Shown: positions 52,313-62,430 of the stretch, in pieces
Layout of the letters: each line of letters opens with the position of its first letter
Numbering within the stretch: the stretch's first letter is position 1
From: an uncultured Gemmatimonadaceae bacterium
GTDB lineage: Bacteria; Gemmatimonadota; Gemmatimonadetes; Gemmatimonadales; Gemmatimonadaceae
DNA length: 64,000 bases
Direction of reading: 5' to 3'
NCBI GenBank assembly: GCA_963790305.1
Contig: CAWBOC010000005.1
Span: 224,001 to 288,000 of the forward strand
The notes under the pieces: generated by a model
Told to the model about the DNA's origin: nothing
What the model saw: the letters and a program-made list of their open reading frames with translations, nothing else
Databases searched by the model: none
Translations under genes and position numbers: made by a program

Positions 52313-52406
52313 TTGGTTCTTCAGAGTCTTACACCTTCGTCGGTCGCGAGACTGGCGCGCGCAGCCCGCGGCGTCGTATCGTGTGATCCCCCGTCCCGGA
52401 GGACAC

Positions 52407-54356
52407 GTGCTCTCGTACCGCTACCGTCGTTCCGCCGTTCTGACATTCCTGGCGCTTGCCGCCTGTGCTCCCGGTGGATCGACGCGGGAGTCGCAAGGAT
52501 CCGTCGACCGCGTCTTCACGCCCCAGCAGTACACGGTCGAAGATTTCTACAAGAACACGAGATTCTTCGGTGCCTCGTGGGCGCCCGATCGCCAAAAGCT
52601 GCTCGTCTCGTCGAATCTGTCCGGAATCTGGAATGCGTACAGCTTCCCGGTCGGGGGTGGTGAGCCCCAGCCGCTGACGCAGTCGACGGGGAACTCCATC
52701 TTCGCGCAGTCCTATTTCCCTGGCGACGAGCGCATCATCTACACGAGCGACGAGGGCGGAAACGAGCTCACGCACGTCTACGTGCGTGATCCCGACGGCA
52801 CGACGAAGGATCTTACGCCGGGCAAGAAGCTGAAGGCGAGCTTCCACGGCTGGGCTGGCGACGACAAGTCGTTCTTCGTCTCCACCAACGAGCGCGACGC
52901 ACGGTACTTCGATCTGTACGAGATCGCGACCGACGGCTACGCGCGTACGCTCCTCTACAAGAACACGGAAGGGTTCGAGCTTGGCCCTGTGTCGCGCGAC
53001 AAGCGGTACATTGCGCTCGTGCGGCCGCGCACCACGTCGGACGCCGACATCTTCGTCCACGACCGCACCACGAACACGACGAAGAACATCACCGAGCACA
53101 CGGGCACGGTGAACAACTCGCCGGCGGACTTCTCGCCCGATGGCTCGAAGCTGCTCTTCGTGTCGGACAGCGGCCGTGAGTTCGCCGCGTTGCGGAGCTA
53201 CGATCTCGCCTCCGCGGCGAAGTCGACGGTGTACGAGCAACCCTGGGACGTATTGGGCGCGGAGTATTCGAAGGGCGGAAAGTATCTGACGGTGTACGTG
53301 AACGAAGACTCGCGATTCGTCGCCCGCGTGCTCGACGCGGCAGGATTCTCGGTGGTTGCGCTCTCCGACATGCCCACCGGGCTCGTGCGTGGGGTGACGA
53401 TTTCGCCGGACGATGCGTCGCTCGCGTTCTACGCCAGCGATGGCAGCGTGCCTGACGAGCTCTACGTGCGATCCTTCAGCGCCCCACCCAAGCGGCTGAC
53501 GAACGCGCTCCACTCCGCGATTCAGCGCGAGGATCTCGTCGTTCCAACGGTGGTTCGCTTCAAGTCCTATGACGGCGTCGAGGTTTCCGGCGTGCTGTAC
53601 CGCCCGCACCAGGCATCGCCCGATGCCAAGGCGCCGGCGATCGTGAAGGTGCACGGAGGCCCAGGGGGCCAGGCGCAGGTCGGGTACAACGCGCTCACGC
53701 AGGCGCTCGTGAACCGCGGCTACGTCGTGTTCGACATCAACAACCGCGGCAGCTCAGGCTACGGCAAGACGTTCTACGCGATGGATGACCGGAAGCACGG
53801 CGAGGCCGATCTCGGTGACGTCGTCGCGAGCAAGAAGATGTTGGCCGAGACGGGATACGTCGATTCGACGAAGATCGGGATCCTCGGCGGAAGCTATGGT
53901 GGCTACATGGTGCTCGCCGCGCTCACGCTCCAGCCGGACGCGTTCAAAGCCGGCGTCGATCTCTTCGGCATCTCGAACTGGATGCGGACGCTGAACAGCA
54001 TTCCGCCCTGGTGGGCATCGTTCAAGGAAGCGCTCTACGCCGAGATGGGCGATCCCAAGGCGGACAGCGCGCGCCTGCATCGGATTTCACCGCTGTTCAA
54101 CGCCGACAAGATCAAGGCGCCGCTCATGGTGCTTCAGGGAGCGAATGATCCGCGCGTCCTCAAGGTGGAGTCCGATGAGATCGTGGCGGCGGCGAAGAAG
54201 AACGGCGTCCCGGTCGAATATGTGGTGTTCGAGGACGAGGGCCACGGCTTCGTGAAGAAGGAAAACGAGATCGAGGGCTACACGGCCGTGCTCGGCTTTC
54301 TGGACCGATACCTCAAGGGGGGAGTGGCGGTCGCGGAGGAAGTCCCGAAGCCCTAA
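52407..54356 (+). CDS. S9 family prolyl oligopeptidase/acylaminoacyl peptidase lipoprotein
   Basis: GGAGGA RBS + GTG; LAAC lipobox; HGGP, GGSYGG, NDPRV, EGHG. Confidence 0.93.
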   Translation: MLSYRYRRSAVLTFLALAACAPGGSTRESQGSVDRVFTPQQYTVEDFYKNTRFFGASWAPDRQKLLVSSNLSGIWNAYSFPVGGGEPQPLTQSTGNSIFAQSYFPGDERIIYTSDEGGNELTHVYVRDPDGTTKDLTPGKKLKASFHGWAGDDKSFFVSTNERDARYFDLYEIATDGYARTLLYKNTEGFELGPVSRDKRYIALVRPRTTSDADIFVHDRTTNTTKNITEHTGTVNNSPADFSPDGSKLLFVSDSGREFAALRSYDLASAAKSTVYEQPWDVLGAEYSKGGKYLTVYVNEDSRFVARVLDAAGFSVVALSDMPTGLVRGVTISPDDASLAFYASDGSVPDELYVRSFSAPPKRLTNALHSAIQREDLVVPTVVRFKSYDGVEVSGVLYRPHQASPDAKAPAIVKVHGGPGGQAQVGYNALTQALVNRGYVVFDINNRGSSGYGKTFYAMDDRKHGEADLGDVVASKKMLAETGYVDSTKIGILGGSYGGYMVLAALTLQPDAFKAGVDLFGISNWMRTLNSIPPWWASFKEALYAEMGDPKADSARLHRISPLFNADKIKAPLMVLQGANDPRVLKVESDEIVAAAKKNGVPVEYVVFEDEGHGFVKKENEIEGYTAVLGFLDRYLKGGVAVAEEVPKP

Positions 54357-55180
54357 CGAGGTTTCCCCTCGCGCCGGCGGCGCCACGCTCCGGGTGACAT
54401 CCCGTGGCGCCGCTGGAATTCGCGAGTCAGGTGGCTCTGGTCGCTGAAGCCTCCGGCGATGCCGATCTCGGACAGGCTCATCGTGCTTTGAGTGAGCTGC
54501 TCCGCGACCCAGTCCAAGCGCAGGCGCCGCGCATACTCGCCCACCGTCGTTCCGAAGTGCGCCCGGAACTCCCGCGCCAAATGCGACGGCGTCACTCCCA
54601 CGGTGGCAGCTACGCCGGACAGCGACACTCCTTCGCGGAAGTGTGCGTGGAGCAGCTCCTGCGCGAGCAGGAGCCACGGCGGAACACGTTCATGGAATCG
54701 ACCTGCGCGATGCTGCCGAGCTGCCGCCGCCAGCATGGTGTGCACGAGACCATCGACCACGAGGGGCGACAGGTCATCGGCCGCGTTGATCTCCTGGGCG
54801 ATGCGGTTGGCATCGGCGGCAATCCCGGCGTGACGCAGATGCCGCACCGCATCCAGAAACCCGCCGAACGCGACGAATGCGGCCGGGTCCGGCTGCACGA
54901 CGAGGACGCGAGCCCCATCGCGCCCAATTCGGTTGGCGTGGCGCTCGCCTAACGGTTCCACCCAGACGGCCGCCGGCGGGCAGTCGAGCGTTCGATGCGC
55001 AATCGCGGAGTCGAACGCCCCGCTCAACATCACCCCGAAGATGGGACGGTCGTGCGTGTGGGACGGCAGCTCGGCGTTCGGAGGAAACCACGCCTCGATG
55101 ACGCCGCACCCCGTCGCCTCCATGCTGTGGAAGCGCGGACTGCCCATCGTGACCGGTACGTGCCGTTGCCGCTGTCTCAC
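54353..55180 (-). CDS. AraC family transcriptional regulator
   Basis: Cupin HTH.R..., C-terminal SLSEIG..GFSDQSHLTREF...GMSPG; start uncertain (55180 or 55147). Confidence 0.9.
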   Translation of the reverse strand: MRQRQRHVPVTMGSPRFHSMEATGCGVIEAWFPPNAELPSHTHDRPIFGVMLSGAFDSAIAHRTLDCPPAAVWVEPLGERHANRIGRDGARVLVVQPDPAAFVAFGGFLDAVRHLRHAGIAADANRIAQEINAADDLSPLVVDGLVHTMLAAAARQHRAGRFHERVPPWLLLAQELLHAHFREGVSLSGVAATVGVTPSHLAREFRAHFGTTVGEYARRLRLDWVAEQLTQSTMSLSEIGIAGGFSDQSHLTREFQRRHGMSPGAWRRRREGKPR

Positions 55181-55311
55181 GCGCGCTCCGAGGCTCGACC
55201 CAGCTGACAGCACGATTATTCAATCCCGCGCACGGCTGTTCAAGACAGAGAACGCCTCCGGGTCAATGTTCCGAACCCATCGGATTCGGTTCCCCACTCC
55301 CGGAGGCCCCC

Positions 55312-55905
55312 ATGCGAAGCGTTCCTCGTGCTTTTGCCGCGTTCGTGGTCATTCCCATCGTGACCGCTGTTGGCTGTGAGAGCCCGACGGTGTCGGAGCC
55401 GTTGGCGGCCGCCGGAGCCAGGCTTTCCGCAGCCGAGTCGAACGGCGTCGTCCTCAGCTCCAGTGGCGGCGGACATTACTTCCTTCAAAGCGCGTTCAAT
55501 GTTCAGTTTGCCTACACCGCGAAGCGACAGGTGGACGGTACCGTCCAGGGCGAATTCCACGAGTCGTTGCTGCTCGAGGGTGAGACCGTCGCCTTTCGCG
55601 GCAATGTGATCTGCATGGCCGTGGATCCGGTGAATCACCGGGCGTGGATCGGCGCGGTGATCACGGAAAACACGTCGACTCACCCCGCGTTCCAGGAGTG
55701 GTATCACCAGCCGGGCGAGGACGTCTGGTTCCGCGTGGTCGACTACGGCGAGGGAAGCGCGGCGCCGCCGGACCGTAAGACCTTCATGGGGTTCGAGAAT
55801 ACCCCCGGAATCCCGACCTCGGAGGTGTACTGCCAGCTCCAGATCTGGCCCGCCGACGATGCACGCACATGGCCGGTGACGGAGGGGAATGTTCAAGTCA
55901 AATGA
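55312..55905 (+). CDS. Hypothetical lipoprotein
   Basis: GGAGG RBS; AVGC lipobox; FRVVDYGEG, GNVQV; divergent from the AraC gene. Confidence 0.75.
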   Translation: MRSVPRAFAAFVVIPIVTAVGCESPTVSEPLAAAGARLSAAESNGVVLSSSGGGHYFLQSAFNVQFAYTAKRQVDGTVQGEFHESLLLEGETVAFRGNVICMAVDPVNHRAWIGAVITENTSTHPAFQEWYHQPGEDVWFRVVDYGEGSAAPPDRKTFMGFENTPGIPTSEVYCQLQIWPADDARTWPVTEGNVQVK

Positions 55906-55994
55906 GGTGCTCGAGGTGCTCAATGTGCTCGAGGTGCTCAAGGGGAAAGCCGTTCCCTCGAGCACCTCGAGCACATTGAGCACCTCGAGCACCT
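55905..55994. repeat. Perfect 35-bp inverted repeat of GAGGTGCTC nonamers
   Basis: 55905-55939 versus 55960-55994; the variant unit AATGTGCTC is mirrored; touches both stop codons. Confidence 0.95.
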
Positions 55995-56482
55995 TAGTCG
56001 ACGAACGCCCACAACAACTCCTGGCTCTTCCGATCCATCGCCTTCGGTGCAGCAAGCAAGTACAGATCGCCTCCGACATCACGAATGAGCAGGCCGCCCA
56101 TCGGCAGCACGCGCGGCCAGTCATCCAGGTGCGTCTGAAAGGATCGCGGCCCGTGTTTGGTCTCGACCTTCCACTGTCGGATCTCCACCTCCTCCTCGAT
56201 CGACACGACGCGCGTCACCTGCAGCACGAACCCCGCCTCGGCGAGCGCATGTTCGATCGCGGAGCGCGACTCCTCGCCGAGTGTCGCAGGGTCTTCGACC
56301 AACGCGACTTCCGTGTCCTCTTCGTCGCGCAGCGAGAGGTGTCGGTGCGGCTCGGACCACGGAAAGCACTGACGCAACCGTACCGGCACCGCGACGCCCT
56401 CGACGATGGCGAATAACCTCCCGTCGCCGGCGCCTTTTAGGATGAGCTCGGTTTCGCCTTCCAGCTCTAACGATTGAGCCAT
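55994..56482 (-). CDS. DUF1854 domain protein
   Basis: CFPWSEP...LSL, WKVETKHG, LLIRDVGG.Y, MDRKS; AAGGAGG RBS. Confidence 0.85.
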   Translation of the reverse strand: MAQSLELEGETELILKGAGDGRLFAIVEGVAVPVRLRQCFPWSEPHRHLSLRDEEDTEVALVEDPATLGEESRSAIEHALAEAGFVLQVTRVVSIEEEVEIRQWKVETKHGPRSFQTHLDDWPRVLPMGGLLIRDVGGDLYLLAAPKAMDRKSQELLWAFVD

Positions 56483-56503
56483 GGTGAGTCCCTCCTTGGT
56501 GAC

Positions 56504-56571
56504 GAATTCGGAATGCGGAATGCGGATTCAAGTCATCAATCACCAACTTCCGCATTCCGAATTCCGCATTC
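56504..56571. repeat. GAATGCG-heptamer inverted repeat
   Basis: 56504-56526 versus 56549-56571; between co-directional genes. Confidence 0.9.
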
Positions 56572-58824
56572 TTATTGAAGCTGCAGCTGCATTTCGTACA
56601 ACCGCCGATAGATCCCGTTAGGCCGAGCCAGCAGCTCCCGGTGCGTTCCCGACTCGGCCAGCCGGCCCTCCTCGATCACGAACAATCGCGACGCGCGGCG
56701 CAGGGTCGACAGCCGGTGCGCGATCGCGAAGACCGTGCGACCGGCGATGAGCCGCTCGAGCGCCTCCTGAATCTCCCGCTCCGTTTCCGTATCGACGCTG
56801 CTCGTCGCCTCGTCGAGGATCAGGATCCGCGGGTCGTGCAGAATCGCCCGCGCAATCGAAATGCGCTGACGCTCCCCGCCCGAGAGCGTGTGTCCACGCT
56901 CACCCACCACCGTGTCGTAGCCCTGCCCCAGCTTGCAGATGAAGTCGTGCGCGTTGGCCGCCTTCGCCGCCGCCACGACCGCGCTCAGCGACGCCGTCTG
57001 CATCCCATAGCGGATGTTCTCCAGCACCGTGCCGTGAAACAGATACGGATCCTGAAGCACCATCCCGAGCTGCTGGCGATAGTGCCCCGTATCGAGCTGG
57101 CGAATGTCCACGCCGTCGACGCGAACCGTTCCGCCGGTGGCGTCGTAGAAGCGCGCCACCAGATTCACCACCGTCGACTTGCCACCACCCGACGGACCCA
57201 CCAGCCCGATCAACTCTCCTGCGCGTACGTCGAAGCTGATCCCGCGCAGGATCTGCCGCACTCCGTCATACGCGAACGTCACGTTCTCGAACGTCACGCG
57301 CCCGCGCACCGGCACCAGACGCACCGGCTCCGCCACGTCACGCACTTCCGGCTCGCTGTCCAGCACCTCGAACACGCGGTGCGCCGATGACGTCGCCCGA
57401 TTGATCGTGCGCGCCATCTGACCGATGATCTCGATCGGACCGACGAACATCGTCGTGTACAGCAGAAACGACACGAACACCCCCGCCGACAATGGCGAGC
57501 CTTCGCCGAGCAATCGAGGCATCGCGAAGATCCACACCATGACCGTCGTCGAGTGCACCGCGAGCATCAGCAACGGCCAGAACGTCGTCCACATCTTGTG
57601 GATCTCGTTCGCCTCATCGGTGCAGTCCTCGTTGCGCACGCTGAAACGCTCGATCTCGCGCGACTCCTGGTTGAACGCCTTTACGACGCGAATGCCCGGA
57701 ATCGTGTCCGACAGCACGTCGGTGACGCGCGACCATTTCCGCCAGGCGCGAATGAATCGCGAGTTGAGCGATTCACCGTGCCGGTAGATCATCCAGCAGA
57801 ACAGCGGCACCGGAAGCGTCATCACCAGCCCCAGCCGCCAGTCGAGCGAGAGCAGGACGACGCCCAGCCCGAGCAGCATCACCAGCGACAGTGACACATC
57901 CACCACTCCGAACGCCACGAAGTCCCAGAGCCGGTCGGTGTCCGATGTCACGCGCGTGATCAGGCTTCCCGTCTTCTTCCGCGAGAAGAAGGACAGGCTC
58001 AGGTGCTGAATGTGCTCGTACAGCTCGGCACGCAGGTCGCGCGCGACCCACTCACCGATCACCGACATCAAGCGCAGCCGCACGTGCGCCGCGATCTGCC
58101 GCAGCACGTAGAGCCCCGCCATCGCGCCGACGGCGATCCACGCGATCGTCGCCGCCGCGCCACGCGCCATCGTGCCTTCGTTCGCCTTGCGCACGACGTC
58201 GTCGATCAGATAGCCCGCCAGATACGGCGGCACGAGGCTCGCCAGCGTCACGATCGCCGCGGCCGTGAGGCCGAGCGTGAGCTCGCGGCGATAGCGCGTG
58301 AGATACCGCAGCAAGCGCAGGATGACCGCTGACTGACGGCCGGCCACCAGCGCCTGCGCGTCACGCACCGGGCGCGCGACCGCGTCCGCGTACACGCGGT
58401 CCGCATCGGTCGGTTCCACCGCGCGACCTTCCAGCGCCTCGTCCAGCACGAAGCGAATGTTCTCGAACGCGCCGCGCTGCCGCTGGGTGTACCGCACGAC
58501 CGCCAAAGGCGGATCGTCAGGCACACCGAGCAGGAGCAACGCGTTCGCGCTGAGCCCGGGCGATTCCTGCACCGCCTGTATGCGCGCGCGCTCGACCGAG
58601 TGCACGTTCCACGCGCCCTCTCCGGCCGGACGCGCCAGAGCGATGTGCCGGGGGCCTAACGCAAGCCACGACTCGTGCAGTCGCAGCCCGTGGTCGAGGT
58701 CGGCAAGGGCGTAGAGCTGAACCGGCTGATTTCCCCACTCGCGCTCGATGCGCGCGCGAAGCTCGGTCGGGAGGCGAGCTGGCTGGCCGATGTATCGGCT
58801 GATGATCTCTTGATCCTGATTCAT
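56572..58824 (-). CDS. ABC exporter, fused permease/ATP-binding subunit with extended N-terminus
   Basis: TM domain; GPSGGGKS, LSGGERQR, ILDEATS, AHRL. Confidence 0.95.
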   Translation of the reverse strand: MNQDQEIISRYIGQPARLPTELRARIEREWGNQPVQLYALADLDHGLRLHESWLALGPRHIALARPAGEGAWNVHSVERARIQAVQESPGLSANALLLLGVPDDPPLAVVRYTQRQRGAFENIRFVLDEALEGRAVEPTDADRVYADAVARPVRDAQALVAGRQSAVILRLLRYLTRYRRELTLGLTAAAIVTLASLVPPYLAGYLIDDVVRKANEGTMARGAAATIAWIAVGAMAGLYVLRQIAAHVRLRLMSVIGEWVARDLRAELYEHIQHLSLSFFSRKKTGSLITRVTSDTDRLWDFVAFGVVDVSLSLVMLLGLGVVLLSLDWRLGLVMTLPVPLFCWMIYRHGESLNSRFIRAWRKWSRVTDVLSDTIPGIRVVKAFNQESREIERFSVRNEDCTDEANEIHKMWTTFWPLLMLAVHSTTVMVWIFAMPRLLGEGSPLSAGVFVSFLLYTTMFVGPIEIIGQMARTINRATSSAHRVFEVLDSEPEVRDVAEPVRLVPVRGRVTFENVTFAYDGVRQILRGISFDVRAGELIGLVGPSGGGKSTVVNLVARFYDATGGTVRVDGVDIRQLDTGHYRQQLGMVLQDPYLFHGTVLENIRYGMQTASLSAVVAAAKAANAHDFICKLGQGYDTVVGERGHTLSGGERQRISIARAILHDPRILILDEATSSVDTETEREIQEALERLIAGRTVFAIAHRLSTLRRASRLFVIEEGRLAESGTHRELLARPNGIYRRLYEMQLQLQ

Positions 58825-58854
58825 GTTCGTGATCCGCGCTCACAGTTAGGCAGC

Positions 58855-58893
58855 AAAAAGGCCTTTCAGGTCTATGGCAGCACCCGAAAGGCC
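58855..58893 (-). terminator. Intrinsic terminator in the ABC-transporter 5' leader (attenuator)
   Basis: GGCCTTTCGGGT...ACCTGAAAGGCC followed by TTTTT, 30 nt before the ATG. Confidence 0.75.
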
Positions 58894-58919
58894 GGATCAC
58901 GACATTGAATCCTGGTCTT

Positions 58920-59048
58920 CTAGGGTGCTCGGCCCCCGGCGGAGTCACCGCCAAAAACCCACGTTCCAGGGCGCACTTCGCCCATCAAGGCGAAGACGCG
59001 CGGTCCGGAGACGCGAATGAGAGTGATAACTCGGAGGCTTTCTATCAT
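58920..59048 (-). CDS. Putative 42-aa leader peptide ending RAP-stop
   Basis: MIESLRVITLIRVSGPRVFALMGEVRPGTWVFGGDSAGGRAP*; lies between the promoter and the terminator. Confidence 0.4.
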   Translation of the reverse strand: MIESLRVITLIRVSGPRVFALMGEVRPGTWVFGGDSAGGRAP

Positions 59049-59092
59049 TTCAGGATTGGGTTCCCCTTGTGGGAGGTGCTGCCGTTGAGCCC

Positions 59093-59121
59093 AAGATAGG
59101 ATCGGAAACCGAGGAGGGCAA
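59093..59121 (-). promoter_or_regulatory. Putative sigma70 promoter TTGCCC-N17-TATCTT
   Basis: Correct spacing; predicted TSS near 59085, at the antiterminator strand. Confidence 0.5.
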
Positions 59122-59207
59122 GATCCCCGCCCGGTCCGCCTCACAAGTAGGTACGAACGGGATCTGCGTCAGGATTCACGTTCCGGGTTTCCATTGGCCG
59201 GCATCGA

Positions 59208-61607
59208 TTACGGCCAAGGCAGCGGGATAACCCTGAACCGGGACCGTGCCTCCGGATTATCCTCTCCGGCGAAAAAGCGGTTGATGTCACGGACCGCCGC
59301 GGCCCGATGAGCCCGGTCGGCAGGCGAGCCGGTACTCATCGTCGAAAGCCGGTTCTTCAGGAGATCGAGGTGCATCGCCGACACCGACCGCACCTCGGCC
59401 AACGCCTGCCGGTCGCCGGCACGATCGAGCAGCGTGTTGAGCACCACCTGTTGCACCGCGCGTCGGAGCGCCTGGTGACCACCGTTGCTCGACGGAGTCG
59501 CACCCCACGTGCGGGTCACGATCGTTCGAATCACTTCGTCGAGGGACGGATTCGCCGCATCTCTCGCGTTGAACAACACGAGTCGTGCAGCCCGCTCGCG
59601 CTCGAGGATCCCTTCGACCACTTCCGTTGCCAGCCCACCGGCAAGGGAGACCTGGTCGAACGACGTCCCGCCGGCCGAGCCGATCCACTCGATCGACGCG
59701 TCGCCGCCCGCGGGCACCGGTGGAATGAGCGCCATCACACGCGCGGGTACAGCAAGCTTCGCCGGCTCGAGCTCATCCAGCGCCATCGCGAGTGCGCGCC
59801 GCTGCTGCGCGGGAGGCGTTACGCTCGTCGGCGTCTGACTGTCACCGCGTACCGCGTAGGTGAAGTCCATGCCGCCGATGTATTTGACCAGCCCCTCCAG
59901 CGAATACCGATGATGCAAATAGACGTGCGCGAATCGCATGTTGAGCAGGTACATTGGCTCGCCCGGCTTGATGGCGCGCTCGTCGAACTTCTCGATGAGA
60001 ACGCGGCGAACCGCTGCGGTCCGCTCGACCGCGTCGAACGCACTGGCGCCCTCCACCCACCGCGTTGCCTCGGGGATCGATCCCTCGGCGCCGGCATGCT
60101 GGTCGGCAACGAACCGCAATCCACGCCCGAGTCCCTCCGTCACGATGCGCTGGAGTCCGGCTTTCTCAGCATCCGCGTTCGGATACCACGTGTAGCCGTA
60201 ACGGATGGCGAGCGAATCCCATCCGCCGGCGAAAGGTGCGTAGGCGCGAGAGAGATCGGGCTGACCGTTGGCGCCCAGCGTGATGATCGGCACCGGATAG
60301 TCCATCACGGACGCGCGCCCCTGCGATGACGAAATGAAGTTGTGCGAGAGGCCCAGGGTGTGGCCGATCTCGTGAGCGACATGCTGTCGCCGGCGGGCCA
60401 TCGCGAACTCTTCCGCCGGCATGTTCAGCCCGTTAGGTCCAGCCGCGGGGAGAAGCCCAGCGTAGATGTTGTAATCGATCAACGATCGCCACGAATCCAT
60501 GCGGACGACCGTCCGCACGATCTCGCCGGTTCGCGGGTCGGCGAACGATGGACCGACGGAGGGTCCGGGCCCGCTGCGGTGCACCCAGTAAATGAGGTTG
60601 TACCGCGCATCCATTGGGTCGGCGCCAGCCGGCAGGTCGCGAACCTGAAAGGCGTTTCGCCAACCCGCCGCCTGGAGCACGGTGTTCCACCAGTTGCCGC
60701 CGTCGCGAAAGGCCGTGCGATACGGTTCGGGGATGGCGGGATCGAGGTAGTAGATGATGGGCGCCACCGGCTCGGTGGGTTCCCCACGTGCGTACGCAGC
60801 GGGATCCTTGGGAACGAGCCGCCACCGGTTGATGAATCCCGCGCGGTAGGTGCCCTCGAAGCTCTGCCCGAAGTCGTTGAATTGCGTGGCGAAGAATCCC
60901 GATCGTGGATCGGCCGCGCGCGGCGTGAATCCCTGAGGCGCGGGGAGCTCCACCAGCGAGTGATGGATCTCCATTGTCGCCGACGATGGATCGGGAACGT
61001 GCCGGCGCACGGCGGGTCCGGGGTTCTCGATTGCGAAGGTGAGCACCGCGTGGATTTCCGTATTCGTCGGGAACGCCTTCGTGCGCGAGGCGTCGATCCA
61101 GCTACGACTCGCGTCGACGCGCGCGCTCCCCTGCTGCGCGCGTCGCAGGCTCTCTGCGATTCCGTACGTGTCGGTGAGAAAGAGCCCCGTGGCGTCGACG
61201 AGCAGGGTGCCGTTGGTCTCCGACTCGATTGGAAACGAAGCGATCACCGACGTTGGATACGCCTCAGCTGCCGCGCGCTGGCCCGCGGCATCGGCGCCCT
61301 GCGCACGAACGCTCCAGTTGTCGCGCACGAGAAGAACGCGTTTCCCCTGCCGCTCGAGGCGCACGAGAGCACTGCCGCCGGTTTGGCCGCGGTCCAGCCC
61401 CAGCGCGTTCGCTCCGAATCCGGTCGCGAGGACGCTCTGGTGCAGCATGTCTCGATTCAGCCGGGTAGGCGCGATCTCGAGCAGAACCTTGTTTCGATCG
61501 GCATCGACGCGCACTCCGATGAATTGCGCGAGGCCAACGGTTGGAGCACCGAGTGAGATCGTCAGAGCGGCGACTGCTCTGAGCAAGAAGCGATCGTTCC
61601 TTCGCAT
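59208..61607 (-). CDS. Zinc-dependent metalloprotease (DUF5117/DUF4953 type, metzincin)
   Basis: Signal peptide; HEIGHTLGLSHN, SVMDY Met-turn, DPRTGEI. Confidence 0.92.
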   Translation of the reverse strand: MRRNDRFLLRAVAALTISLGAPTVGLAQFIGVRVDADRNKVLLEIAPTRLNRDMLHQSVLATGFGANALGLDRGQTGGSALVRLERQGKRVLLVRDNWSVRAQGADAAGQRAAAEAYPTSVIASFPIESETNGTLLVDATGLFLTDTYGIAESLRRAQQGSARVDASRSWIDASRTKAFPTNTEIHAVLTFAIENPGPAVRRHVPDPSSATMEIHHSLVELPAPQGFTPRAADPRSGFFATQFNDFGQSFEGTYRAGFINRWRLVPKDPAAYARGEPTEPVAPIIYYLDPAIPEPYRTAFRDGGNWWNTVLQAAGWRNAFQVRDLPAGADPMDARYNLIYWVHRSGPGPSVGPSFADPRTGEIVRTVVRMDSWRSLIDYNIYAGLLPAAGPNGLNMPAEEFAMARRRQHVAHEIGHTLGLSHNFISSSQGRASVMDYPVPIITLGANGQPDLSRAYAPFAGGWDSLAIRYGYTWYPNADAEKAGLQRIVTEGLGRGLRFVADQHAGAEGSIPEATRWVEGASAFDAVERTAAVRRVLIEKFDERAIKPGEPMYLLNMRFAHVYLHHRYSLEGLVKYIGGMDFTYAVRGDSQTPTSVTPPAQQRRALAMALDELEPAKLAVPARVMALIPPVPAGGDASIEWIGSAGGTSFDQVSLAGGLATEVVEGILERERAARLVLFNARDAANPSLDEVIRTIVTRTWGATPSSNGGHQALRRAVQQVVLNTLLDRAGDRQALAEVRSVSAMHLDLLKNRLSTMSTGSPADRAHRAAAVRDINRFFAGEDNPEARSRFRVIPLPWP

Positions 61608-61632
61608 CAACCTGCCTCCAAAGACTTGCGAT

Positions 61633-62430
61633 TCATCGCGGAATGACGAGTTGAATCTCATTCCCCTGCTGACCGATGCGATACGTCCCAATGGGCTGAT
61701 CCGCGGGGCCAGCTTTGACGACGCCCGTTCTTACATCGAACTGCGATCCGTGCCATGGGCATTGCACCGTACCGCAGATCATCGTTCCGCCCGCCAGGGA
61801 GCCGCCACGATGCGGACAGTGGTCGTCGAATGCAACGTATCCCTGCTCGGTGCGAGCGAGGACGATACGCCGATCACCGACGTGGAGCAGCTTCATCTGA
61901 TCGACCTTGAGCTCGTCGGCTTTCGCTACGACCAGGGCCGCACCTGCGGTGGCATCGATCCTCTCTTCCTTCCATTTTCCTGCGCTCGCGTACCGATGGT
62001 CGACGCCTATCTGGTTGCGGTTCACCAGCACACCCCCCATCCATCCACCGGCGATGAGCAAGCCAAGCGCGGCGAGCTCGAGTCCCAGCACCCAGATGTC
62101 GGGCCTGCCCACCATTTCGCGTCGCATGATCCACGCGACCGCAACCAGCGCCACGGCGAGCAGATTCACGAGCATGTGTCGTGTCGCGCGACGCTTACCG
62201 GAGCTGCGCGGGGGGACGGTGAACAGATAATCGATGAACCCGGGGACAGCGGCCACGAGCGCCGTCACGATGCCGGCCGCCGCGAGATGACTTCCGGTCG
62301 TCCACCAGCTTGCGCGATCGGCGAACCACCCAGCCGTATCGAAGAGAAAGGCGCCGGTGAGGAAGGCGAACGGAAAGGGGATCAGGGCCGGGTGAATCGG
62401 GTGTCCGCGAAAGCTGGCCTTGCTTCGCAT
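61633..62430 (-). CDS. DUF2231 membrane domain-Rieske [2Fe-2S] fusion protein
   Basis: GHPIHP N-terminus with about 4 TM; CPHRGG and CPWHGSQFD Rieske boxes. Confidence 0.88.
   Translation of the reverse strand: MRSKASFRGHPIHPALIPFPFAFLTGAFLFDTAGWFADRASWWTTGSHLAAAGIVTALVAAVPGFIDYLFTVPPRSSGKRRATRHMLVNLLAVALVAVAWIMRREMVGRPDIWVLGLELAALGLLIAGGWMGGVLVNRNQIGVDHRYASAGKWKEERIDATAGAALVVAKADELKVDQMKLLHVGDRRIVLARTEQGYVAFDDHCPHRGGSLAGGTMICGTVQCPWHGSQFDVRTGVVKAGPADQPIGTYRIGQQGNEIQLVIPR

Follow-up and report, generated by a model that had tools for sequence, protein, structure and literature searches.

A leader ORF, a terminator and a start-site mask form a candidate ribosome-mediated attenuator upstream of an ABC exporter/DUF1854 operon in soil Gemmatimonadota

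The leader of an ABC exporter/DUF1854 operon in an uncultured Gemmatimonadaceae bacterium is conserved across one order of soil Gemmatimonadota. It contains a conserved short ORF (uORF) with its own start, an intrinsic terminator, and an alternative structure that uses the 5′ arm of that terminator. We consider it probable, though well short of certain, that the operon is controlled by a leader-peptide (ribosome-mediated) attenuator combined with a translational mask. Most likely, a ribosome that finishes reading the uORF switches the exporter operon off. The window analyzed here is a stretch of 64,000 nucleotides, in which an earlier sequence-only reading had proposed an attenuator-like leader; all features described below lie on its minus strand.

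All of the leader elements fall within the 383 nt that separate a Met-zincin gene (59208–61691) from the ABC exporter gene (56572–58824). A sigma-70-like promoter, TTGCCC-N17-TATCTT (59093–59121; −35 at 59121–59116 and −10 at 59098–59093), would start the transcript at about 59085, and a match to TTGNNN-N16-19-TANNNT is present in 78/85 unique homologous leaders, mostly 40–57 nt 5′ of the uORF ATG. The predicted 5′ end of the transcript in the window's own leader carries GGCAGCACC (59075–59083), whose complement, GGTGCTGCC, is seen by inspection at the terminator apex (58884–58876). Region 1, AATCCTG (59051–59057), sits directly 5′ of the uORF start and pairs with region 2, CAGGATT (58914–58908), as the two strands of helix P1. 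Between them lies the uORF (58920–59048; ATG at 59048, TAG at 58922–58920), which has 42 codons plus TAG, encodes MIESLRVITLIRVSGPRVFALMGEVRPGTWVFGGDSAGGRAP and ends in GGRAP. Two hairpins are nested in it: H0, GGGCG-N5-CGCCC (58969–58983), from RNAalifold on 45 leaders, and H1, GGCGG-TGACT-CCGCC (58938–58952), from the minimum free energy fold. The 5′ strand of the antiterminator/anti-sequestor hairpin, GGCC GAGCACCC TAG AAG ... CAGGATT (58908–58934), has the stop codon in its middle and region 2 as its final 7 nt. Region 3, TCGTGATCC (58894–58902), can pair with region 2 or with region 4, GGATCACGA (58827–58835), the 3′ strand of a sequestor located 3–11 nt 5′ of the ABC ATG. The terminator (58855–58893) has an 11-bp stem and a 12-nt loop, with the hairpin GGCCTTTCGGG / CCTGAAAGGCC at 58893–58860 and a T5 tract at 58859–58855 that ends 30 nt before the ABC ATG (58824).

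The promoter, the 42-codon ORF ending GGRAP-TAG, the bracketing pair, the U5-tailed terminator and the 5′ complement had all been described in the sequence-only reading, and each is found where it was placed. Simple consensus scans of the window reported neither the promoter nor the terminator, since their rules accept only hexamers nearer to the consensus and loops of 3–8 nt, while the loop here is 12 nt. The fold of the window's leader has a z-score of −5.28 relative to shuffled sequences, and 0/200 shuffles fold as well. With respect to transcription, 20/24 sequencing runs contain part of the stretch; six are on record as RNA, with small shares. Contigs of four soil RNA libraries, from four studies, match the leader and the start of the ABC gene at 85–99% identity and cover about 58669–59180 in pieces of 151–215 nt; these contigs break at the variable loop, show neither transcript ends nor strand, and do not prove transcription. 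One of the contigs extends 5′ of the predicted −35, to 59180, which could be read-through from the upstream gene or DNA carry-over.

The gene behind the leader encodes an ABC exporter of 750 aa (56572–58824) with ABC_membrane and ABC_tran domains and an N-terminal extension of 165–180 aa. This extension (58330–58824) is well conserved, has no match in Pfam, and is covered solely by the full-length model NF052233, a cyanophycin metabolism-associated ABC transporter, which is also the best NCBIfam match of the whole protein (640.6 bits; cut-off 880). The operon had been read as ABC exporter/DUF1854, and the second gene does encode a DUF1854 protein, of 162 aa (55994–56482; PF08909, E 2.2e-33), which scores 71.6 bits against NF052234, below the cut-off of 150. 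As both scores lie below the curated cut-offs, we describe the pair as relatives of NF052233/NF052234 and do not call them members. In the available text of Price et al. (10.1101/072470), DUF1854 is proposed to be an exporter subunit for an amino-acid polymer, on the basis of cofitness with cphA genes. The cphA-like matches of this genome share a contig with the ABC/DUF1854 operon, at a distance of about 520 kb instead of next to it. These cyanophycin synthetase-like matches (G000:C5:806419–809506; L111, L112) score 709.9, 317.5 and 66 bits in separate adjacent pieces, accompanied by a second, partial copy, and the pieces may be frameshifts or merely an effect of six-frame reporting. The neighborhood of the operon (59208–61691 and 52383–54356) encodes a DUF4953/DUF5117 Met-zincin, a Rieske/DUF2231 protein, an AraC-type regulator (54353–55213) and an S9 prolyl oligopeptidase. 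Long Arg-rich frames at 56121–56555, 55240–56124 and 58517–58954 overlap the real genes or the leader, match no family and resemble GC-rich junk; the first two were rejected as operon genes, the real DUF1854 gene being 55994–56482.

The leader recurs with the exporter. A protein scan that took a single genome for each species, with the first 480 aa of the exporter as query, returned 576 relatives among 600 candidate stretches, and the best 80 were kept; these best 80 of 576 carry Gemmatimonadota, Gemmatimonadetes, Gemmatimonadales, Gemmatimonadaceae or Gemmatimonas titles, with one titled only "bacterium". A DNA search of 61 related genomes finds the 3′ 160 nt of the leader at 77–82% identity in seven other genera of the family, and a core of about 80 nt in three genomes of two other families sampled. 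Within the genus, 7/8 genomes carry this core, and the remaining genome is 71% complete. A uORF of 31–52 codons occupies the same place in 95/98 homologous loci, with its stop 22–28 nt 5′ of an invariant GTGATCC (95/98 loci); the three loci that lack it have less than 140 nt of upstream DNA present. One of the 95 (L013) is from a genome flagged as unpublished, and no claim is based on that locus alone. A covariance model built on the 3′ half of the leader matches 13/151 sampled genomes of the phylum, which are exactly the DUF1854-carrying genomes of two families (f1 and f2). The model finds no match in four genomes of another order that carry DUF1854 and the ABC gene. In these four, the ABC gene is preceded by a uORF of diverged sequence that ends EP-TAA, EP-TAA, GAP-TAG or RVP-TAG, followed by a strong hairpin and a T-tract, and in one of them by the compensated pairing GAGCGCC/GGCGCTC. 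The promoter, uORF, bracketing pair and terminator are thus kept in the homologues, and the proposal of a conserved, structured, uORF-bearing element of attenuator type is borne out.

The helices of the leader are supported to different degrees. Counts for the 3′ half were taken on alignment A3, which holds 80 unique 3′ halves; 5/85 leaders were omitted for long insertions. These five (L094, L103, L104, L075 and L079) have insertions of about 15–60 nt between the terminator and region 4, and those of L094 and L103 consist of a GC-rich inverted repeat (CCCCCTCTCCTGA..GGAGAGGGGG) that may be a small repeat element. The terminator is the sole helix that RNAalifold predicts on A3: 99.7% of its cells are paired in the 80 leaders, and 6/11 of its pairs have changed on both sides. 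Its stability is about −27 kcal/mol, and the mean for the terminator alone over 85 leaders is −24.3 kcal/mol, with a T-tract that is weaker and degenerate (GTTCTGTT) in some clades. The bracketing pair noted at the outset is likewise conserved, as P1. Its sequence differs by clade (TCCGTGA/TCACGGA in L016, for example), 82% of its cells form pairs across 45 leaders, AU to GC changes among them, and cognate strands give a duplex of −10.37 kcal/mol compared with −8.87 kcal/mol for non-cognate ones, with 0/2000 permutations as low when kinship is ignored. H0 is 96% paired in the 45 leaders; H1 is 77% paired, with some double changes, and has weaker support than the other helices.

The sequestor helix between regions 3 and 4 (TCGTGATCC/GGATCACGA) is 96.2% paired in the 80 leaders and nearly invariant, with one covarying pair, and the equilibrium model gives the ABC initiation region a mean unpaired probability of 0.15. 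Since the sequestor and the antiterminator core are both nearly invariant, little covariation is on offer for either of them. No canonical Shine–Dalgarno (SD) sequence at normal spacing is found for the uORF or for the ABC gene. The GGATCAC 5′ of the ABC start is identical to the bases directly 5′ of the anti-SD in the genome's own 16S rRNA (3′ end ...GGATCACCTCCTT), and the GTGATCC of region 3 is complementary to that 16S 3′ end (sites 58894–58900 and 58829–58835; L147, L148). These matches mean that the sequestor helix mimics an mRNA–16S duplex.

A helix that closes a multi-hairpin domain next to a terminator could also belong to a metabolite riboswitch, a possibility that had been raised before. 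Here the domain closed by P1, with H0 and H1, would be the aptamer, a ligand would stabilize P1 and thereby free region 3 and the terminator arm, and the ORF would be secondary. That the 3′ strand of P1 is common to the alternative hairpin, the strong fold z-score, and the RNA-level conservation within the uORF are all consistent with such a device. The distribution of conservation is the reverse of that in known riboswitches, whose conserved part is the aptamer, however: the enclosed domain shows poor conservation in its 5′ half, and the expression platform is nearly invariant. The ATG-to-TAG frame, moreover, is kept in every leader despite indels and a change of frame in the middle of the uORF. 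Rfam 15 gives no match over the whole window at gathering score, and the leader region gives no riboswitch at E up to 10 (best E 0.74 and 2.7, to miRNA and snoRNA models), in agreement with the earlier impression that the element belongs to no known family. As conservation peaks in the expression platform rather than in the enclosed domain, we regard a riboswitch as unlikely.

What competes with the terminator is the 3′ end of the uORF, which pairs with the loop and with the upper part of the 5′ arm of the terminator, and this competitor is conserved. When the RNA that is present before the terminator 3′ arm is made (from 16 nt 5′ of the stop to the end of the loop) is folded, one long hairpin, hereafter the ON hairpin, is obtained in six diverse leaders. 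It is built from AGCACCC/GGGTGCT, the post-stop GAAG with CTTT or CTTC of the arm, and region 2 with region 3. Averaged over 85 leaders, its energy is −27.4 kcal/mol, compared with −24.3 kcal/mol for the terminator by itself and −49.1 kcal/mol for the complete 3′ half with terminator and sequestor. Each of the six base pairs of the antiterminator core is 83–100% paired (66–80 of 80 cells), with AU to CG in six sequences, and the extension into the loop changes together with uORF codons −5 and −4, for example as GGC/GCC, GGAC/GTCC, GGCC/GGCC and GTCGAAG/CTTCGGC. The 5′ strand of the ON hairpin has a median z-score of −2.05 relative to its own shuffles, with 51% below −2. Cognate uORF ends pair with the apex at −16.96 kcal/mol compared with −16.02 kcal/mol for non-cognate ends, and 0/2000 permutations are as low, kinship being ignored. 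Around region 3 and the terminator arm, some 24 nt are nearly invariant because each base there has two partners, a pattern that also speaks against a riboswitch. A pseudoknot in place of an alternative structure was rejected by reasoning alone, as a loop left with about 8 nt could not span a pairing of 10–12 bp.

This differs from the antiterminator that the sequence-only reading had proposed, in which the transcript 5′ end pairs with the terminator loop. That pairing reaches about −21 kcal/mol only in close relatives (L001–L004). Across 78 leaders it amounts to −12.37 kcal/mol compared with −11.99 kcal/mol for non-cognate partners, and 105/2000 permutations are as low, again with kinship ignored. 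The 5′ complement does overlap the terminator, as was claimed, but it shares only the loop and the top two stem pairs with it, so the two structures are not fully exclusive. In snapshot models from which the terminator 3′ arm is absent, the apex pairs with the uORF end in 5/6 leaders, and a ribosome at the stop abolishes the pairing. The window's own leader is the exception in these models; there the predicted partner of the apex is instead the 5′ end of the transcript, which stays uncovered by a ribosome at the stop. An equilibrium model, run on the window's leader only, forms the terminator and the mask at every ribosome position. An equilibrium switch was rejected on the basis of this one leader, in which no dependence on ribosome position is seen, and any switch must therefore be kinetic.

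These structures suggest how the attenuator that we favor could operate. In its OFF form, P1 (regions 1:2) would bracket the uORF, the terminator hairpin would form, and the 3:4 helix would cover the ABC start. In the ON form, a 5′ strand made of the final ~12 nt of the uORF, its TAG and ~20 nt beyond, with region 2 among them, would pair with region 3, the loop and the full length of the terminator 5′ arm, leaving the terminator 3′ arm and the ABC start free. The ON hairpin would be complete before the terminator 3′ arm is made, such that naked or slowly translated RNA reads through; RNA left untranslated at the uORF end would thus take up the long hairpin, allow read-through and expose the ABC start. 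A ribosome at the Pro-TAG, with a footprint of about −15 to +12, would hide the 5′ strand of the ON hairpin, so that the terminator and then the mask could form. Its stay there would be prolonged by the Pro-stop and by an SD-like stretch resembling GGAGG that lies ~7 nt 5′ of the last codon in most clades, a spacing like that at initiation sites; slow release after Pro is established, as described in the accessible part of PMC3082878. The signal may be a delay of the ribosome, a drug or translation inhibitor, starvation, or a ligand that acts on release.

The switch outlined above presumes that the uORF is translated. Its start is ATG in 82/85 unique leaders, its stop is TAG in 85/85, and GGAG/GAGG clusters occur 8–15 nt 5′ of the stop in 70/85. 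The uORF frame is open in every leader, compared with stops in 80/85 and 19/85 for the other sense frames, a comparison that is only indicative because the uORF frame was picked for being open. In the dN/dS check that had been suggested, pN/pS is 0.70 in the uORF frame compared with 1.11 and 0.98 in the other frames (114 non-independent pairs). Against translation stand a pN/pS no lower than 0.70 and an entropy profile that is flat across codon positions. Considering the open frame, the pN/pS, the recurrence of Pro-stop in the diverged loci and the GGAG/GAGG clusters together, translation of the uORF seems to be under selection. Beyond the terminal Pro, the peptide sequence seems mostly not to be, as judged from the alignments.

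Selection at the level of codons is evident at the uORF end. The last Pro codon is CCC or CCT in 82/83 leaders compared with 30% in the neighboring ABC genes, the Ala codon is GCA in 70/77 compared with 6%, and the Arg codon is CGA in 60/61 compared with 9%. Each of the rare codons CGA, GCA and CCC has a third base that finds its partner in the terminator arm. In the middle of the uORF, the H0 motif (45/85 leaders match its pattern) is read in frame 2 as GxVRPG in 20 leaders and in frame 0 as GRIASG in 25, so much of the apparent peptide family is RNA conservation. The rare pairing codons and the motif decoded in two frames point to selection on the RNA, and an RAPP-like arrest peptide is not needed to explain the RAP motif. 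No run of regulatory codons and no enriched residue is found in the uORF. Sensing of Arg codons was rejected, as Arg (14.8%, compared with 11.4% in the ABC genes) is not enriched beyond base composition. A programmed +1 frameshift at CCC_TAG was also rejected, since the +1 frame is open past the hairpin in only 69/85 leaders and ends 4–13 nt past the TAG in 3/85. Read-through at CCC_TAG was dismissed as well; the frame continues for at least 45 nt in 85/85, but its ends are scattered and the ABC start has no fixed frame.

The same codon data bear on whether the small ORF encodes a functional peptide, such as a substrate or partner of the exporter, with the hairpin acting only as a leaky terminator to fix how much peptide is made relative to transporter. 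A small ORF followed by a terminator and an ABC exporter is the layout of many peptide-export loci, and a pN/pS below 1 would be expected of a functional product. The peptide has no family match in Pfam or NCBIfam, however, and no C39 peptidase domain is found on the ABC protein. A mid-region read in two frames according to clade and C-terminal codons dictated by pairing also fit poorly with a selected product, and there would be no use for an alternative hairpin or for a mask on the ABC start. We therefore consider a functional peptide very improbable.

A more serious competitor is regulated arrest at termination, in which the nascent RAP, with UAG in the A site, would block RF1 when a small molecule or some other cue is present, as TnaC does with tryptophan. 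The time that the ribosome spends at the stop would then be the regulated variable and would set how long the antiterminator strand is hidden. The last codon is Pro immediately before the stop in 83/85 unique leaders, always with TAG, and the four other-order loci (4/4) also have Pro-stop, which is the arrangement at which TnaC stalls according to the available portions of PMC8450073 and PMC8429421. RAP is also the P-site part of the RAPP arrest motifs, as described in the accessible text of PMC10951233 and PMC12992588, and the modeled geometry of the leader would make dwell time at the stop decisive. Like the RAPP/RAGP peptides (ApdA, ApdP and SecM) and TnaC, this ORF lies upstream of the gene that it would regulate, ends mostly in Arg-Ala-Pro and would place Pro-tRNA in the P site. 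The second Pro of RAPP is absent, however, with a stop in place of a Pro codon after the motif, and the preceding residues are replaceable: position −3 is Arg in only 61 of 85 leaders, Gly in 16 and Glu in 6, and some leaders have Thr, Val, Ser or Arg at position −2. The motif upstream is read in two frames, which argues against a tunnel segment conserved across clades, and an intrinsic terminator stands where tnaC has a Rho site. Selection on the peptide is not required, as the rare codons fit the RNA pairing. The RAPP structure paper, in its accessible part, contains no passage on release factors or termination. The genes downstream, unlike those of RAPP leaders, are an ABC exporter and DUF1854, and no link to a Sec or YidC gene is found. 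The leader is thus not a member of the RAPP class. The arrest at RAP-stop envisaged in the sequence-only reading is neither shown nor needed, given the variation at −3 and the pairing of the rare codons with the terminator arm, and we view regulated termination arrest as doubtful.

One further form of this idea is that the RAP-UAG leader peptide is a termination-arrest sensor, a stop-codon version of RAPP, in which a metabolite tied to the amino-acid polymer under export, such as arginine or a dipeptide, would modulate release by RF1. This is speculative and we would not expect it to hold. If it did, dwell time at the stop would set both the read-through into and the translation of a DUF1854-type exporter.

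The ribosome-mediated attenuator that we favor has relatives among known systems. In ermC, four segments form a chain (1:2 with 3:4, or 2:3), segment 4 is the start of the regulated gene, the leader ORF overlaps the early segments, and a ribosome stalled within the leader turns expression on. A four-segment chain with a leader ORF over the early segments is also found here, as in translational attenuation of the ermC type. Unlike in ermC, the off state is predicted here, with segment 2 and the antiterminator strand both hidden under a ribosome at the leader stop, and segments 3 and 4 have a transcription terminator nested between them. The pheL-type attenuators share with this leader a short leader ORF that is presumably translated here too, an intrinsic terminator with a competing antiterminator, and a Pro-stop within the regulatory pairing region; enterobacterial pheL ends CCC_UGA, and in the available text of PMC3082878 ribosome release at that stop sets basal read-through. 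The present leader differs from pheL in having no run of regulatory codons, an exporter rather than biosynthetic genes downstream, a stop that is always TAG, an extra helix that masks the start of the structural gene, and another that brackets the whole uORF. An ABC exporter behind a leader ORF is also seen in bmrB-bmrCD of Bacillus subtilis, where transcription attenuation is ribosome-mediated (as given in the accessible part of PMC4191407). This likeness is by description only, and bmrB-bmrCD responds to antibiotics that target translation, whereas such inhibitors are only one of several candidate signals here. Among the papers listed by our literature search, none describes attenuators in Gemmatimonadota or a leader in front of DUF1854/ABC genes. 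The main text of the RAPP survey paper, in the portion available, contains no mention of Gemmatimon, ABC transporter, DUF1854 or terminator; its supplements could list related small ORFs.

For motif hunting, these observations carry a caution, in that a conserved "RAP-stop" can stem from pairing with a terminator arm and not from peptide arrest. For the Gemmatimonadota, a common and little-studied phylum of soil, this is a first candidate leader-peptide attenuator with a clear anatomy. It ties translation-based regulation to a DUF1854-type ABC exporter, and its inducer would point to the role of that exporter.
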